A stretch of DNA of 61,604 bases, the filler included, from Globobulimina sp. (lineage: Eukaryota): the NCBI GenBank assembly GCA_003354225.1. It is 22 parts of 22 records of this genome, joined end to end, with 100 filler letters (N's around TTAATTAATTAA, not from the genome) between each part and the next. Parts side by side here need not be neighbours in the genome. Positions count along the whole stretch, not along the records: positions 56,099 to 58,801 come from PIVH01005279.1; 21 more parts are not named here. One strand, written 5' to 3'. The stretch's first letter is position 1; the number at the start of each line of letters is the position of its first letter. The notes beneath the pieces were generated by a model. The model had not been told where the DNA came from, did no database searches, and worked only from the letters and a program-made list of their open reading frames with translations. Both the position numbers and the translations under genes were made by a program. Positions 53,296-61,604 of the stretch are shown piece after piece.

Positions 53296-53567
53296 GTAAA
53301 ATAAACTGTTATAAATACTAATAAGTTGGCATATGGGATGTATTTAATTGCTGTAATATTTAACAATATTAATTGCACGTTGTGTGATATTAATGCACCC
53401 CATATACACAAAAAACCAATCAATAATGAAGTGTTTAGTCTTCTCTTGGATATTTCTTCCATATTTCTTAAGTAATAAAAAGACAGAAACCATGATATCA
53501 TAAATGATATCACTATCAATGATACTCCAAACGTTACAAAATTTAAAATGTTTCGAGTGTTTGTCAT
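53296..53567 (-). CDS. Membrane protein N-terminus (7TM-like), 3' truncated
   Basis: Three hydrophobic helices in ~90 codons. Confidence 0.55.
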
Positions 53568-53779
53568 ATTTTATCTGTTGCTAGAAAGTAAAAAAACTGT
53601 TTGTCACAACTACACGAACCATGACGACAAGAACATAGTTATACCGTGTCTCTATATTGATTCGTATTCAGTTTACTAGTTTCGTGTTATAATTTCATTA
53701 TATTAAGCAACTTATTTTTATATATGTGCCTTATAAATAATTAATATCCAAAAACTAAAAAAAAGGATACAATCAATTA

Positions 53780-55998
53780 ATGATAATGAACAATAAAGAC
53801 AATAATTATAAGGACAATAATCACAATCCACATCGCAAAAAGAAAAAGACAACATCTCAAAAAAATCTATACCACAGACACAAAATACCAAAAAACACCT
53901 TTTCGAACTCAGAACCTCGAAACCAACATAACCAGCCAGCTAATAGAAGAGGCCCCAAACTGGCCCGAATCAGCACAGATCCTGGCTTCGGTGGACAACA
54001 TTCGACCATAGTCTCCATTCCCTCGCTCATGCAAACAAACACGCATCTAACCCCTGTCGAAGATGTAATAATCACTCCCAATCGCACTGGCAATACATCC
54101 CATGGCCAATTCCCAAACGTTTTCATACCCAAAAAACTTGCAAACGCCAAAGGTAAATCGGCACCGCAACATCTAAAACGTAAGCCATTGCCACCGGCGC
54201 CATCCTCAAATAACAAGTACAACAACAATATGCTAACCGGCATGACCTACGACTTCATACCGACCGCCTTCCCCCAGTCCAAATCTATGATGAAACTGGA
54301 AACCACCAAAGACAAAAACACCGGGACGACAACAACGACCACCACTACAATTACAACCTATTCTGTGTTCAATGTAGATTCAGATGCCAGCAAAAGAAAA
54401 CGTTTTCCGTCAACTGGGAAAATAAGATATTCAGCGCCAAATAAAAAACAACCATCGGCCAAGCAGCCCCAACAACAGCCCTTTATCCCTACGTTCTTCC
54501 CTTTGGGCACCACACAAAATGAATTAAAAAGCATGCAATTCGGTTATAAAAACACCAATAACACGAAAAACGATAATAACTTTACGTATATATCTTATAA
54601 CAACAATAATAATAAGAATGCCAACAAAAAAGTCAAAAACAAACCGGGCGGTGCTTATAATAATAATATCAATATATATGCGACAGGCAATGATATGAAG
54701 GACGACTATGATATACCATACGACGAATATGACGAAGAGGATGTGGTTGAAGAGAAACAACATCAAAGACAAAGATCGAAAACATATCAACACGAAAAAC
54801 GAAACAATTATGATGCACAACGCAGGAGAAGTGACAGCGAAATAGTTTCGCCAACCTCGCCAAACCACAATGTCTCATTTGCTGTGTATGACCAACCTCA
54901 GCAATCAAAAGCGTATCAAAACACAAAAACACGCTCCAAGACAGTGCATAATATGATGGCAAAACCAAATCGATTACAACATTCTAAGTCCATTGGCATG
55001 CCGCCACCATATATACCGAAGAAGGTTACCACTACAAAACTAACCAAAGGCTCTAGTTTTGACCCCAATAATAATGATGTTGCTGTTAATCCATTCCCTG
55101 CTCCTTTCATACCGCCACCACCGCCACCACCACAAACATGGAACAATAAACAGAAAAACAACAATGAGAATGTTAATAAACCAATGTTTGATTTAGCACA
55201 GATATTGTTACCAGGACAAGACAGTAAACAAACTTTAACAGAAACGTCGTATGATATGCAATATGATGACAGCGACGATGACTCAAAGCCTGAACCACTG
55301 CCACATTCGTACAATGAAACTACAATAATAAATGTACCAAAAGAAGTAGCTAAAAAAAAACGAGTGCGCCGCAATAGTGATACTATTGTATACACCCCGA
55401 CAAATGCCGCTGTTATTGGCGATAGCTCCTTCATACAACATATAAACACTGCACCTGTGCCACGAAACAGTATGCGGCATTACAGAACACGCAACAAAGA
55501 GCCAGGTCATTTTAAAAACCTTGAAGATGTTAGTAAAGTTAGCAATGACACACCGGACAGTGCCAATGCCAGTTCAGCTACACCTGATTCTTTGATCAAT
55601 CATTGTTTCTCGCAACATGAAGAACTAAGTACGTCCAGCGAGCATAACAGCAATTTAAATGCCGTGAGTTTTCGTGAGAAACATAACCTATCCTTAGTCG
55701 ATGAAATTGCTTCCAATAAAATCCATACAATATTACCTTTTGACCCTCAAACTAGAGTCCATGGCCGACGCAACAGTGCGCCTGAAACGCCCACACCGCG
55801 GAGCATGCTTACTTCGCCGAGTGCGCCCGATATGGAAAACTCGTTGTTTTACCAAGAAAACATGGAACAGAAACCAGCTCAGTTACACAGCAAATTCTTC
55901 CCGCCGGTTGCCAAGAATTCCAACGTTTTGCACAATAAAAACAAGCAATTGATTGACAAACTGTTAGGTTTCAGCACACATGCTTGGAATTTTGACAA
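53780..55998 (+). CDS. Long disordered protein, possibly the N-terminus of a class I cyclic-nucleotide phosphodiesterase, 3' truncated
   Basis: About 740 codons, N/Q/P-rich. Ends at LIDKLLGFSTHAWNFD, resembling the WxFD at the start of PDE catalytic domains. The product call is tentative. Confidence 0.55.
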
Positions 55999-56280
55999 NN
56001 NNNNNNNNNNNNNNNNNNNNNNNNNNNNNNNNNNNNNNNNNNTTAATTAATTAANNNNNNNNNNNNNNNNNNNNNNNNNNNNNNNNNNNNNNNNNNNNCC
56101 AAGGTCTTGCAGTGCTTTTCTATAAAACAGATTGCTCTCTGCACTCCTTGCAAGTTGCAACCAATTGCCCGCCTCCAAAATAAAAATGGAGAGCAACATT
56201 CACAAGTTAATTAATCGACTAATCCAACGTTAACCCTCTGAATCCAAAAACAAACCAACCTCTTAATTCAATTCAGAAAT

Positions 56281-58801
56281 ATGTCACGATTCCCAAGCAA
56301 TATGAGCCTCAACAACGCGACCAACGCAGCCCTAACCAGCCACAATTCCTATATACCAGTCTTACACCAACAGCAACACCAACAGCAACACCAAAAGCAA
56401 GACGAAAAACGAGAAGAACTCTTCCAAGGCGTAATCGAGTGCATTTCCTTCAAACCGCACAAGCAAAAACAACCCGGTTTGCGCGCAAATGTCTTCGTCT
56501 CCAAAGAATGCACCAAAGACCTCTCGGAATACATCGTCGAAGAGAACTGGGGCAAAGACAATGGAATGTTATACAAATACTTGGATTACATTTTTCGTTG
56601 CCAGATCTTCGACGAACAGGTGAAAAAAATCACGCTCGCCAACAAGTACGAGATCGTGGTGTTTCACACCGGTTTACAGCGCCGAATGGACCATAATTTC
56701 CTATACTTCGTACTCAAACAAAACGACCCCGAAAAGCGCAACGCCGAGCAACGTTGGCGAGTCCCGGCCGGCCACATTAACCAATCCTGCATCTCTCAGA
56801 GCGAGCTGATGAGCAAACCGTACTGCTTAAAACATGTGCACTTGCCGCAAAGGACCAAGTTCTATAACTCGCTGCAGGAGCTATTATACGACGAATCGTA
56901 CGAAATCGAGGTGAATTGGCCGGAGCGGCTGCGCACGAACAAAGAGCGCATTTATCAGGAATTGAAGCATAAGTACGACAGCAACAACAGCATCGAAAAG
57001 AACAAGTTAGTGGGCGAGTTGACGGATGCCTTCACCGCGGCGTTGGAGAAGGCCAAGAACCGCGCCAAAGCCAACCCGCGTTTGGCCGTGGCCCAAGGCT
57101 TTGTGGAGACCAAGCATTACAAGAAGAGGGTGGAGCTGCTGTTGCCGCTCAAGGTGCAGTACCCCAAAGACAGCGGAAAGTACCACACCTTCGCCTTGGC
57201 GCTGCGCAAAGTAGAGGGCGGCAAGAAGTACACCGGCATGTCGCTGCTCACTATGAGCATGGCCTACGCCAATGCGCGCTTAGTGGGCTATGTGGACAGC
57301 TCGTGGCTGACCAACGAGAACAGTTTAGTTTAGTTTTTTTGCATTGTGGGCGACGCGCAAAATCGCAATGCATATGCTTTCAGAAAAAGAGAAGAGGGAC
57401 AAAGACGGCGACAAAGAGCGCTTGTCGACGCATGGCACGTCTCCGCAGAACAGTGCGTCGAATGCGTCGTTGAAGAAGGAACGAGAAGCGATGAACGCGC
57501 TCGCTCCAAACCTGATGAATGTGTTCGGAGCGTCCAATGGCAGGATGACCTTCGGCGGCCCGCAACGAGTGAATCGATCGCGTGGCGGTAATGTGGCGAA
57601 CACATTGTATAACCACAACATCGCACAGTCGCTGCCGCCCATTCCCTCCAACGGGCCCATGCCGCATGTCGTGGGTGTACAGGACGTGAATTTGAGCGGC
57701 ATTGCTGGCGGCTACAATGCGTATTATTACCAACAACAACAACAACAACAGCAATATCCGCACAAACAGCAAGTGATCCAACCACCGTATATTGCCGATG
57801 CGCGCAGCGAACAATCTGATAATAATCCGCCATTATCCAATTTCGATACGCAGCCCACGCTCAATAACAATGGCAATGGCAATGGCAATGCGTTTAAATC
57901 TGGTCTTGCCGCAATTCCCTGTGCCAACAATTTAAAATATTCACGCTCTGCGCTGCCGGTCATGGCCCATAATCCTCCGAAATTGCATAATAAATTACCC
58001 GGTATGGCTTCTCAAACACCCTTGTTTTTCAGAAACACGCACTTTGAATGTTTAGACACAGAGCCTGAGGAAGATGAAGAAGACTCTATGTTCGACCAAC
58101 ATTTGGCGAGTTTGAACGAACCGCGCGGATTGACGCTGGACCATACCTCGGAGCAAGAAATCCAAACCTTAAAAGTGCGCAATTTAAAATATTTCCCGTC
58201 CGAACCGCCATTAAAAGACTCTGCCTCGAAACCTCGCAAAAAAAGGCCACCACCAAAACACATACAAGTGCCCATCCAACAATATTACGCCTCGCATAAA
58301 CTGGCCAACGTCCCCCAGCAAGTACAAAAATACGCGCAGCCCACCACGCAGCAATTTGGAGTGGTGCCCTATCAAAAGACGCATTACAGCAATGCCGAGG
58401 ATACGCGCAGCAATCACAGCGACAATGGGCAATCACCCAAATACCTGTTGCAAGCCTCGCAATTGCCCAATGACTGCGGCGTGAATACCTTGCGCCAGAT
58501 CTTCGGCGGGACAGTGCCGCTGCAATCCGTCCATTTGGTGGACGACGACAAGACCGCCGTGTTGCGCTTCGAGAGCCAGAACGACTTACAAGACGCGGTG
58601 CTGTTCGCCAAGCAGTTTGCGTCGTGGATGGAGTGTGCCACCATATCCAATTCGCCATATTTGAAGAACTTCGACCAGCAAAATGTATGGCAATACCAGG
58701 AGTCCAATAAATGGAAAGCGCATCACGAAGAAATGGGCGCTATGATCGACCAAATCCCGCCGCGCACCGACTTGCTCATCGAGCATGGTTCGAGGAAGTA
58801 T
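56281..58801 (+). CDS. DUF3825-like domain + Q/N-rich linker + RRM-like + WWE protein, 3' truncated
   Basis: DUF3825-type motifs LYKYLDYIF, FHTGL, AVAQ, ELLLPL, LLTMSMAYANARL...SWL. Phase-1 intron 57323-57383 (GTTTAG...TTCAG) fuses the two ORFs. RRM-like region at ~58442-58620 and WWE-like WQYQESNKW from ~58685. Confidence 0.75.
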
Positions 58802-58990
58802 NNNNNNNNNNNNNNNNNNNNNNNNNNNNNNNNNNNNNNNNNNNNTTAATTAATTAANNNNNNNNNNNNNNNNNNNNNNNNNNNNNNNNNNNNNNNNNNN
58901 NATGATAGTTTTCACAAATCAAGCACACAATAAAATTAATTCTTTTGATACGAGTTAATTGATGAAGGAACAGCAAATATTGATGTATTA

Positions 58991-61604
58991 TTTTTTTTTT
59001 TTGGAAACTAGAGCAAAATCTTGCGCTCTGAATTAAATTAAATACGTCGCATGACATTTATCAAACAATTGTAAAACATTTGTGTATCTCAAAAACATAA
59101 ACAAAAGTGTTTTTGATATATCACCACAAACAAACAAAAACTAAAAACATAAAAGGATATTAAATACACAAATCTGTTCACAAAATAACTCTAAAAACAT
59201 AACTCAAACATGGCATAAAAAAGAAAGGAATAAAACATATATTAAATAAAATTATTGTATTATAAAATGATTTTTTAATGATTTAATGATATTCTTCTTT
59301 ATAAAAATTGAAAATCTTGAATAAAAATTATTTTTCTCAATCATTATATCCTGTTTTAACCGACTTGCCTTATACTTTAATGCTGCATTGCATGTATGCT
59401 TTACCTTTGTACTCATTCCTCCAAAGCTATCAAATGCCAATGGTATGAATTTGTATCCATTTAATATATCTGCTTCAAATCTGTCCTTATATTTGCTGTA
59501 CTTACTATTCTCCCCAATCTTTCCTGCCATAAAGTGCGAAATCTTATCATTTTCTGTATTTAATTTGTTTTCATTACAAAATATATCCGTAATTATAACA
59601 TCTAACATCACTTTGCTAAATCTATCTTTTTCGTATTCAATTGTATTATGTATCCAAATGTCAGGTTTCTCCTTTTTTTTTCCATTTTTTCTCGACTTTG
59701 TTTCATATGTAACACTGCCACATTCTGCCTCGAATAATTCAAATAAATAATATGCTATTTTGTCGTGTCTGAAGTGATGTGCTTTTGTACCAAATCTACA
59801 CTTATTCATATGTTCAATGACTTGCTCATTTTTAATGTGTTCGTGGCACTGATTGCAAATAATTTGCTTGCTTTTGTCTATTAATGTCAATCCGTATAAA
59901 ATCCGAATTAATAAATTCCAATCATTGTTATTCAAAAACATTTCATTCAACCAATCAATTCCAATAATATTATTTAAAAATGCCATCGTTTTGTTCGAAC
60001 GTCTCGCGTTCATCAATATTTTTGTTTTAATACTTGCGTTATCATAAATTTTGTGGTAAATCTTGCTCTCAACGCCGTATGAAAGGGAGTTCATTTTAAA
60101 TTTGCTGTTTATATCATATAAATCATGGTTTTCATATTCATTTTCATTGTCAACGTTCATTTTATTTTCGTGGCAATCAATTCTTAAATTTGCAATTTTC
60201 AACATATTTTCAAATAAATCTAAATCACATTTACTGTCCTCTTCTTCGTGTGCATTAATGTTTAAATTATCTAAATTGTGGAATACGTCTTTAATTTCAA
60301 TGTTAAATTTCTTTGACGTGTTATAGTTATTCCATTTGATCGCGTTTTGTATGTTATTCCTAATTTTATTATCAGTTTTAAATAATAATTCGATTTTTAA
60401 CTCATTCCACAGCGGTTTGACAATTTTGTGGATACAGGAAATGTATGCTGGCGCGACTAAGTTGGTAACACTGCGAATACATAAACCTCCAAATCCTTTT
60501 CCAATTGAAAAAATCTGTTTAGTTTCGTCATCGATCGGTATATTTATTGCTGAATTAATTATCTTTTCGTGTATTTGATTGGCTTTAATTAGCCATTGAT
60601 TATCATCATCGATCTTAAATTCACCGTTTTCATCAACATCCGGAATATTATCATTGCATTGTAGGAAATAGTTGAGATTTTCAAATTTTTCACATGAATT
60701 TAATAATTTGTATTTATGCCACATACTTTCAATCGAATTAATTATATCAATTTTATTATTCATTTTATTTAATTTTTTAATCATCATATTATTATATTTG
60801 CCTTTACCTCGTTGTATGCCAAGCATTTCAAATTCGCAATTCTCTAAAATTTTAAATTTATAATTAATAAAATATTGATTGGTCGCTGTATTTAATTTGT
60901 CTCTGTTGTGTGTTAAGATAATTTCTGTTTTTTTATTGTTAAATTTATTACCATATTTAATACCAATTTTCTTTTTTAATAAATGATTAATTATACACTT
61001 TCTTATTGTATCTCCTTTGTTTGTGTCGTCAATATAATTTAACTCAATTAATAGCTCAATAATATAGTTTGCGTCGGCAGACATAGCACCGACTAAATCC
61101 ATTATATCTCTCTCATTGACAATAACAATGACATTCGTCACTGTGTTGCCTTGATGTAATCCATCGGACATTTCTTGCATTTCATTGTTGAAAATAACCT
61201 TCGTCGGCGCACTATAATTAACGTAGGCGATATTATATAGATTCGGTGCTAATTTATTTAAATTTTTGCGCGACGGTTTGCGTAATATTCGGTTAAAAAA
61301 ATTCTCCATGTCATCTTTCATCAAAATTTTAATATTATCCAAGTCCGAGTTGTTCCAAAATAGCATATCAATTATTTCATCATTAATATATTCGTCGTCT
61401 CCGAACGTATACTTTTCATTTTGTAATATTTGTCTTATTTGATTTTTTTTATTCTGCAGATTTCTATTCGATTCCGCATTATTTACTAAATTCGTTTTCT
61501 GCTCAAAATATTGTTCATTTTTACTCGTCGCAAAATCAATAAATTTATCCATTGAATGTACAATAATGCTCAGTGCATCTTTCTTGTTCATACCGTACTG
61601 ATTT
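58991..61604 (-). mobile_element. CRE-like (RLE-bearing) non-LTR retrotransposon, 3' portion
   Basis: Intronless RT-RLE ORF, about 250 bp of 3' UTR and a candidate A12 tail (T run at 58991-59002). The D..N.FN...R and PLAF...GG motifs fit the CRE clade. Confidence 0.8.
59252..61603 (-). CDS. Reverse transcriptase + CCHC knuckle + restriction-like endonuclease ORF, 5' truncated
   Basis: RT motifs QYG...IVH, DMENFFN.I.R, GLHQGN, YIDD, N.KKT, LG, GGL.I; then CNQC..H...C, RHD, KPDI, LDV, K..KY, FIPLAFDSFGG. Confidence 0.92.
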   Translation of the reverse strand, partial: NQYGMNKKDALSIIVHSMDKFIDFATSKNEQYFEQKTNLVNNAESNRNLQNKKNQIRQILQNEKYTFGDDEYINDEIIDMLFWNNSDLDNIKILMKDDMENFFNRILRKPSRKNLNKLAPNLYNIAYVNYSAPTKVIFNNEMQEMSDGLHQGNTVTNVIVIVNERDIMDLVGAMSADANYIIELLIELNYIDDTNKGDTIRKCIINHLLKKKIGIKYGNKFNNKKTEIILTHNRDKLNTATNQYFINYKFKILENCEFEMLGIQRGKGKYNNMMIKKLNKMNNKIDIINSIESMWHKYKLLNSCEKFENLNYFLQCNDNIPDVDENGEFKIDDDNQWLIKANQIHEKIINSAINIPIDDETKQIFSIGKGFGGLCIRSVTNLVAPAYISCIHKIVKPLWNELKIELLFKTDNKIRNNIQNAIKWNNYNTSKKFNIEIKDVFHNLDNLNINAHEEEDSKCDLDLFENMLKIANLRIDCHENKMNVDNENEYENHDLYDINSKFKMNSLSYGVESKIYHKIYDNASIKTKILMNARRSNKTMAFLNNIIGIDWLNEMFLNNNDWNLLIRILYGLTLIDKSKQIICNQCHEHIKNEQVIEHMNKCRFGTKAHHFRHDKIAYYLFELFEAECGSVTYETKSRKNGKKKEKPDIWIHNTIEYEKDRFSKVMLDVIITDIFCNENKLNTENDKISHFMAGKIGENSKYSKYKDRFEADILNGYKFIPLAFDSFGGMSTKVKHTCNAALKYKASRLKQDIMIEKNNFYSRFSIFIKKNIIKSLKNHFIIQ

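Follow-up and report, generated by a model that had tools for sequence, protein, structure and literature searches.

The window analysed here is a 61,604-nucleotide stretch of DNA from Globobulimina sp. (assembly GCA_003354225.1), composed of 22 unplaced contigs of 2703-2706 bp each, ordered by length. The contigs were chained artificially through linkers, each made of TTAATTAATTAA between two blocks of 44 N and carrying stops in six frames, so that neighbours in the window are not genomic neighbours. The gene of interest is confined to one of these contigs (56099-58801) and encodes a protein in which DUF3825, a domain otherwise bacterial, is followed by a linker, an RRM fold and the beginning of a WWE domain. 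Its exons, introns and domains are listed in Table 1.

Table 1. Positions in the window of the host contig, the exons and introns of the gene, and the domains it encodes
Feature	Position	Strand	Description
Host contig of the DUF3825 gene	56099..58801	.	Independent, unplaced; 2703 bp; GC 0.497
Probable first coding exon	56186..56205	+	In-frame ATG at 56186, upstream of the one at 56281; 8 additional residues
Probable intron 1	56206..56276	+	71 nt, GT..AG, GC 0.34; skipped in X5, X6
Exon 2	56277..57322	+	Short N-terminal low-complexity stretch and whole DUF3825; ATG at 56281
DUF3825 (PF12873)	56524..57306	+	Pfam E 2e-32; invariant columns; AlphaFold2 model
Intron 2	57323..57383	+	61 nt, GT..AG; phase 1 when counted from the ATG at 56281
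Exon 3	57384..58001	+	Low-complexity linker, probably disordered; Q8 run, N/G run
Intron 3	58002..58055	+	54 nt, GT..AG; skipped in X5, X6, X7
Exon 4	58056..58801	+	End of linker, RRM fold, start of WWE; open at contig end
RRM-fold domain	58442..58651	+	P0050 residues 221-290 mapped to the window; RRM_1 just sub-threshold
WWE, first ~40 of ~65 residues	58682..58801	+	Cut by contig end; mapped from P0050 residues 301-365

Gene model and domain architecture

Read as four exons, the gene yields a stop-free coding sequence of 810 codons, with a GC content of 0.51 in the exons versus 0.34-0.41 in the introns. Intron 2 contains an in-frame stop, TAG at 57331-57333, which closes a first open reading frame (ORF; 56281-57333), and the downstream frame (57329-58801) is open up to the contig end. 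Evidence for splicing was sought in contigs of public sequencing runs aligned to contig 56099-58801. A contig from run X5, 99+% identical, skips intron 2 exactly: 57322 is followed directly by 57384, and the shorter flank of the joint measures 56 letters. Conversely, an X1 contig retains the intron, and since it covers 56420-57598 gap-free, with 0 differences, we regard it as DNA. None of the runs is recorded as RNA, and X5 is taken to be complementary DNA on account of its three precise GT..AG skips. The product of the 57322/57384 splice is stop-free and aligns in a single collinear high-scoring segment pair to the 1303-residue protein P0042 (883 columns, 51% identity, E 0); a second alignment, to P0001, a transcript product of Bolivina argentea, covers 532 columns at 64% identity.

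The two other introns rest on the same kind of evidence. Intron 3 is skipped in three of four runs (X5, X6 and X7; the sides of the joints measure 181, 115 and 110 letters), is covered without a gap by X1 DNA contigs, and corresponds to 18 residues that are missing from the orthologues; its length being a multiple of three, it leaves the ORF uninterrupted. Intron 1 is skipped in two of the four (X5 and X6, at the joint 56205>56277), and we grade it only as probable because the sides of the joint are as short as 21 and 24 letters. The DUF3825-RRM-WWE gene is a real, expressed, intron-containing protist gene. Runs X6 and X7 contain a GC-richer copy of it at 56392-58800, 90-95% similar, with differences that are mostly A>G and T>C, small in-frame indels and the same two intron positions; this copy could be a paralogue, an allele or the gene of a sister species.

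By its profile match the gene is a certain member of the DUF3825 family: ORF 56281-57333 scores 113.1 bits against Pfam PF12873 (cut-off 27; E 2e-32), the match running from residue 82 to 342 of the protein and from position 2 to 238 of the 238-position profile. The linker that follows is a 338-residue low-complexity segment (N 10.4%, P 9.8%, Q 9.2%) in which a Q8 run and an N/G run each occur once. It is probably disordered; its equivalent in the orthologue P0050 was modelled at a predicted local distance difference test (pLDDT) score of 28-41.

The RRM fold is best seen in structure. Pfam RRM_1 (PF00076) reaches 19.1 bits on the window protein (E 0.0012), below the cut-off of 20.7, and just one of 12 family members shows an RRM match at E <= 1. 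An exhaustive HMMER search with the last 200 residues, run over 1.84 billion representatives, retrieved just 11 proteins with E <= 0.001, and the RRM-WWE module is on this count lineage-restricted. The fold comes from a model of the best relative, P0050, which is 68% identical over this part (AlphaFold2, AF2; 12-row alignment). The model, of 618 residues, is poor overall (mean pLDDT 47.6); its residues 221-290 reach pLDDT 84-95 and follow the order beta-alpha-beta-beta-alpha-beta. The top Foldseek rows for this model were RRM-containing chains (prob 0.99-1.00), and all 50 of 50 VIA rows were RRMs (Z 10.2-11.6), many of them with a root-mean-square deviation (rmsd) of 1.4-2.2 Å over 66-73 residues.

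WWE domains in other proteins are readers of ADP-ribose or poly-ADP-ribose. The ~40 residues of this domain present in the window have no Pfam match; P0050 matches the WWE profile (PF02825) at 23.0 bits, above the cut-off of 21.1, over profile positions 1-67 of 67 and residues 301-365. A WWE is also found in P0043 (E 0.0043), and matches at E <= 1 occur in 5 of the 12 family members. AF2 confidence for the P0050 WWE part is low (pLDDT 34-59), and when the alignment of the entire C-terminal part was searched as a profile against the PDB, only low-complexity polyQ matches and a Deltex WWE at E 0.48 came back. Contigs from X5, X6 and X7 extend past 58800, and their translation, by eye, matches the next WWE residues of the orthologues.

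A sequence-only reading of the same stretch had described a bacterial-type DUF3825 inside a spliced eukaryotic RRM-WWE protein, and the Pfam, splice and fold evidence agrees with it: the DUF3825 assignment, the intron now numbered 2, the continuity of one gene across that intron, the Q/N-bearing linker beyond it, the RRM-like domain and the WWE-like domain cut by the contig end were all borne out, and the contig end itself is real, linkers flanking 56099-58801. Its intron count fell short, intron 3 and the probable intron 1 having been missed, and the prion-like character that it ascribed to the linker is unsupported.

DUF3825 in Foraminifera and in bacteria

One search for relatives gave 41 matches, 39 of eukaryotic type (40-86% identity) and two bacterial (24-28%). 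All ten relatives that were looked up by name belong to Foraminifera (Bolivina argentea, Nonionella stella and Elphidium margaritaceum), and further relatives are labelled Ammonia; the other relatives are metagenome or transcriptome proteins. The foraminiferal family is multi-paralogous, and many paralogues, with a common N-terminal acidic motif, end straight after DUF3825. A second foraminiferal subfamily (P0004, P0007, P0008, P0011, P0017, P0019-P0022, P0024 and P0027) has a C-terminal DUF3825 preceded by low-complexity sequence and a common short acidic N-terminal motif. Two Nonionella stella proteins, P0047 and P0060 (958 and 1004 residues), carry DUF3825 in mid-protein (residues 519-761), with different flanking regions and no RRM-WWE.

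In a quick maximum-likelihood tree of 21 foraminiferal-type and 27 bacterial-type DUF3825 domains (311 columns), the two groups are split by one long branch with an approximate likelihood-ratio (SH-aLRT) support of 100, and the window sequence lies beside P0001. The tree shows the foraminiferal sequences to be one deep group; in the other group a few rows carry names (Prevotella, Bacteroides, Marinilabiliales and Defluviitaleaceae), and these are the basis of its bacterial label. The deep two-clade split and the three introns mean that the gene is neither a bacterial contaminant nor a recent transfer, a candidate explanation that is excluded by three introns of spliceosomal type together with foraminiferal relatives 77-81% identical. 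The horizontal acquisition put forward in the sequence-only reading is unsupported in any recent sense, given the introns, the multi-paralogue foraminiferal clade and the fully supported long branch to the sampled bacteria.

On the bacterial side the family is widespread, one word-limited search having found 1714 DUF3825 relatives at E <= 0.001. OST-HTH (PF12872) accompanies DUF3825 in 19 of the 120 bacterial relatives listed, in proteins of ~400 residues, so that the proposed link between the two domains holds in bacteria; Pfam detects no OST-HTH in the window's ORFs or in the orthologues. OST-HTH is a predicted RNA-binding domain (PMC2848206), and DUF3825 is not named in the available part of that paper. 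Among the papers that could be searched, none mentions DUF3825 by family name or identifier. Gene neighbourhoods were considered for the two of six loci that had full flanks (L003 and L005, both Bacteroidales). There the DUF3825 gene stands alone amid mobile or variable neighbours, which differ between the two loci and include AAA-ATPase_like+PDDEXK_9 proteins, a PIF1-like helicase, an IS21 transposase/IstB and a regulator of the WYL-WCX type. The DUF3825 proteins of these two loci are 520-524 residues long, and their first ~215 residues have no Pfam match.

The foraminiferal and bacterial proteins share the same domain at full length, and in each group it is coupled to a predicted RNA-binding module. 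They differ in several respects. Identity between the groups is 22-26%, the Pfam score is 113 bits here versus 205-212 in bacteria, and an insertion of ~50 residues in the bacterial forms is absent from the foraminiferal ones. The bacterial fusion places OST-HTH before DUF3825, whereas here DUF3825 is N-terminal and is followed by the linker, RRM, WWE and a C-terminal domain; and the foraminiferal gene, unlike its bacterial counterparts, has spliceosomal-type introns.

Conservation was assessed on an alignment of 48 sequences (the 21 foraminiferal and 27 bacterial-type ones). It contains 16 invariant columns, which are, in a numbering that starts at 56404, L40, E47, W49, L56, Y59, G90, L91, W118, P148, L246, P248, Y276, R292, L293, W301 and L302. 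Another 17 columns are nearly invariant, including N107, Q116, R150, D163, R182, N224, Y288, N290, D298 and S299. In the window, the invariant E lies at 56542-56544, the two invariant Y at 56578-56580 and 57229-57231, and the invariant R at 57277-57279. Such a pattern is compatible with an active or binding site that has been conserved. An internal duplication of DUF3825 was also considered and is unsupported, hhalign giving a probability of 0.2% for the N-terminal against the C-terminal half.

Predicted fold of DUF3825 and its possible role

AF2 produced a confident model of DUF3825 (pLDDT 90.2, predicted template modelling score 0.85; 28-row alignment) with two alpha/beta halves. In a wide VIA search with this model, ~30 of the top 35 rows were toxin entries (best Z 5.1), and in a second look 28-29 of the top 30 were. 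These entries are RelE, ParE, HigB, YoeB, YafQ, BrnT, Cami1, CdiA-CT or colicin structures. Almost all of their ~90 residues can be aligned to model residues 164-293, a part made up of a long helix, a sheet of four antiparallel strands and a C-terminal helix that bears conserved Y, N and R. Two rows (MqsR and the M. jannaschii RelE) align instead to the N-terminal half. DUF3825 differs from RelE/ParE toxins in being three times larger, with an extra N-terminal alpha/beta half, in having no profile similarity to them, and in having no antitoxin gene beside it in the two bacterial loci examined. The likeness of the C-terminal half to RelE/ParE toxins and the related CdiA-CT/colicin ribonuclease (RNase) domains is weak, and we take it as a lead. 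Foldseek found no match at E <= 0.001 among the BFVD viral models.

The account that we favour, and hold to be fairly probable, is that of a native foraminiferal DUF3825-RRM-WWE gene encoding an RNA-directed effector of ancient bacterial ancestry. DUF3825 would have entered a foraminiferal ancestor from bacteria, probably long ago, and would then have diversified and fused to eukaryotic modules; the gene in the window would be a native, transcribed, intron-bearing gene of foraminiferan type, one part of a foraminiferal expansion of this otherwise bacterial domain. Its protein would run from DUF3825 through the disordered linker, the RRM fold and WWE to a C-terminal domain past the contig end. 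DUF3825 would be the effector module, binding and possibly cleaving RNA or an RNA-protein complex, and the RRM fold and WWE would position or regulate it. We consider an RNA-directed role slightly more plausible than its absence, mainly from domain context, because DUF3825 is tied to OST-HTH in bacteria and to an RRM fold in Foraminifera; cleavage of RNA by DUF3825 is doubtful.

Several observations weigh against this account. Neither the comparison of the DUF3825 model with the PDB by Foldseek (no match at E <= 0.001, prob <= 0.30) nor a PDB sequence-profile search with the DUF3825 alignment (no match at E <= 10) placed the domain in a family of solved structure. The structural likeness to RelE/ParE is weak, with Z 3.4-5.1, in a range (Z < 8) where VIA cautions that a mere common arrangement may be seen, and rmsd 3-5 Å. 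When hhalign was run with the DUF3825 halves against seven ParE/RelE (PF05016) proteins drawn from five bacterial genomes, the probabilities were 0.4% and 0.15%. No conserved His, Lys or Cys is prominent in the 48 aligned sequences, no antitoxin-like or common small neighbour was found in L003 and L005, and none of the PADLOC defence models matches the window's domain or either of two bacterial DUF3825 proteins. RNA binding by the RRM is itself not assured: the aromatic residues of the RNP1/RNP2 consensus stack on RNA, and here the beta-3 strand, by eye, is without the two RNP1 aromatics, so that canonical stacking is doubtful; beta-1 retains a Tyr. As to ancestry, the bacterial sample of the tree was drawn with a single Bacteroidota query (Segatella copri), and the tree is for this reason silent on the donor and the date of transfer. 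The sequence-only reading had gone further and cast DUF3825 as an enzyme, possibly a nuclease; with no solved sequence relative, no Foldseek match at E <= 0.001 and a best Z of 5.1, that claim did not stand. The fold check that it proposed gave a confident model and no convincing match to a solved structure.

In an alternative account, DUF3825 would have no catalytic activity and would serve to bind or scaffold RNA, a nucleotide-derived ligand or a protein. The foraminiferal protein would then be an adaptor of ribonucleoprotein assemblies, in which the disordered linker is combined with an RRM fold that makes protein contacts and with a WWE reader. We rate this alternative as possible, on the unlikely side. 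No catalytic family is recognisable by Pfam, Foldseek, PDB profile or hhalign; the absence of invariant His, Lys and Cys, the absence of an antitoxin or immunity partner in the two bacterial loci, the 338 low-complexity residues of the linker and the RRM that by eye lacks RNP1 aromatics all point the same way. However, polar E, R, D, Y and N residues that are invariant or nearly so at 22-26% identity are more typical of an active site, and the consistent RelE/ParE-like rows represent a fold often used by RNases.

A eukaryotic lineage that has kept DUF3825, multiplied it and fused it to RRM and WWE provides an independent pointer to RNA biology, and the invariant residues are targets for mutagenesis. 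For Foraminifera, whose genomes are poorly annotated, the gene represents a lineage-specific multi-domain family of probable bacterial ancestry with verified splicing. Its value is that of a well-defined target for giving DUF3825 a function; alone it opens no long-standing question.

Provenance of the contig and the domain beyond its end

The native status of the gene has to be weighed against its base composition. The contig has a GC content of 0.497 versus 0.276-0.383 in the 21 other contigs, and GC at third codon positions (GC3) is 0.66 in the DUF3825 gene versus 0.40 and 0.30 in two other long ORFs, a gap that leaves it unproven that the contig comes from the same organism as the others in the window. 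Furthermore, the identical spliced form occurs in X5, which bears a different organism code, whereas X6, which shares the code of the DNA runs and is guessed to be RNA, contains the 90-95% similar copy and not an identical one. These facts could mean that the contig stems from a different foraminifer-like eukaryote with a higher GC content, present in the sample as food, in co-culture or as a mislabelled strain, or, in the extreme, that it is a recent bacterial transfer or a contaminant. We find this improbable. Four DNA-type runs of one sample contain 85-95% of the contig's words; the introns are AT-richer than the exons, as in an AT-rich host; and codon usage is poorly gauged by the two comparison ORFs, which may represent transposons or sequence of low complexity. 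The extreme, bacterial version is excluded by the three introns and the 77-81% identical foraminiferal relatives.

Longer relatives of the gene (eight proteins at E <= 0.001) indicate what lies past the contig end. After WWE, a conserved C-terminal domain of ~150-175 residues is present in five of these eight, P0042-P0046 (1015-1411 residues), and also in P0050 and P0056; orthologues of full length have about 1100-1400 residues. Pfam detects no PARP, RING, HECT or DTC at E <= 10 in the seven C-terminal domains, and no PARP (PF00644), RING, HECT or other E3 family at E <= 1 in the full orthologues; a PDB profile search with the domain had no match at E <= 10. With ESM Atlas features, 18 of the 30 nearest clusters are PARP catalytic (score 0.90-0.94) and 12 are unnamed. 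The catalytic triad of PARP is H-Y-E. The 13 invariant columns of the domain are W, D, C, W, Y, G, A, D, F, V, C, N and A, without a His, so that the H of the triad is not evident; the AF2 model of this part of P0050 has pLDDT ~50-82. PARP-likeness is accordingly a possible, language-model lead. Between WWE and the C-terminal domain, P0042 has a weak motif at residues 1070-1079 resembling PAM2 (PABP-interacting), which scores 11.6 bits (E 0.25), far below the cut-off of 20, and occurs in this one orthologue only.

A more specific version of the favoured account can be put together from these leads, and we think it rather unlikely: DUF3825 would be an unrecognised RelE/BECR-like endoribonuclease family, aimed at RNA by OST-HTH in bacteria, captured once by Foraminifera, then multiplied and, in this subfamily, fused to RRM, WWE and a degenerate PARP-like domain, the result being an mRNA-decay or antiviral factor of the ZAP/PARP type armed with a module of bacterial toxin type. 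The sequence-only reading had pictured an RNA-acting effector in ADP-ribose/ubiquitin signalling, possibly at work in RNA granules or against viruses, and had allowed for a PARP or E3 domain after WWE. With that domain taken as active, this is the least probable of the explanations considered, since, for all that the WWE is real, that a conserved C-terminal domain does follow it in the orthologues, that 18 of its 30 nearest ESM Atlas clusters are PARP catalytic and that the layout recalls PARP14-, PARP12- and ZAP-type proteins (an RNA-binding module, WWE and a PARP or PARP-like domain), the Pfam and PDB profile searches found none of the families concerned in the C-terminal domains or full orthologues, no invariant His was seen, the model is of limited confidence, the domain lies outside the window, and nothing bears on viruses or granules. 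Its forecast of a further domain after WWE was thus correct, PARP as the identity of that domain is possible and has no profile behind it, and nothing suggests an E3; the ubiquitin connection is unsupported, Pfam scans of the orthologues having shown no RING, HECT or other E3 family.

Two groups of known proteins offer partial parallels. MARF1/Limkain b1 (NYN/LK-nuclease, RRM and OST-HTH, as given in the available part of PMC2848206) likewise joins a candidate RNA-acting module of bacterial ancestry to an RRM and further modules related to RNA in one eukaryotic polypeptide. The two are not related in sequence or fold: DUF3825 is not a PIN/NYN domain, the window protein has no OST-HTH, and nuclease activity has been shown for MARF1, whereas a nuclease role of DUF3825 is a candidate one. 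The WWE-containing PARP14, PARP12 and ZAP/PARP13 share with it the order of an RNA-binding fold, a WWE and a C-terminal domain, PARP-like here by language model; the present protein, in contrast, has no PARP match by profile model or in the PDB, and no macro or CCCH zinc-finger domain. We know of no N-terminal DUF3825 in any of those three proteins. The gene belongs to neither the MARF1/Limkain type nor the WWE-PARP family and is best filed as a lineage-specific, undescribed architecture of eukaryotes whose basis is an uncharacterised domain of bacterial type.

The two comparison ORFs lie on other contigs of the window. The first (53759-55997, plus strand; contig 53296-55998) encodes 746 residues with N, T, P and K runs, is open into the linker, has a GC content of 0.41 and a GC3 of 0.40, and matches no Pfam family at E <= 1. 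The second (59252-61603, minus strand; contig 58902-61604) encodes 783 residues, is open at its 5' end, has a GC content of 0.28 and gives no Pfam match at E <= 1; by eye, acidic and Lys residues come after a Cys/His cluster in its C-terminal part, a pattern that recalls a transposon-type endonuclease.

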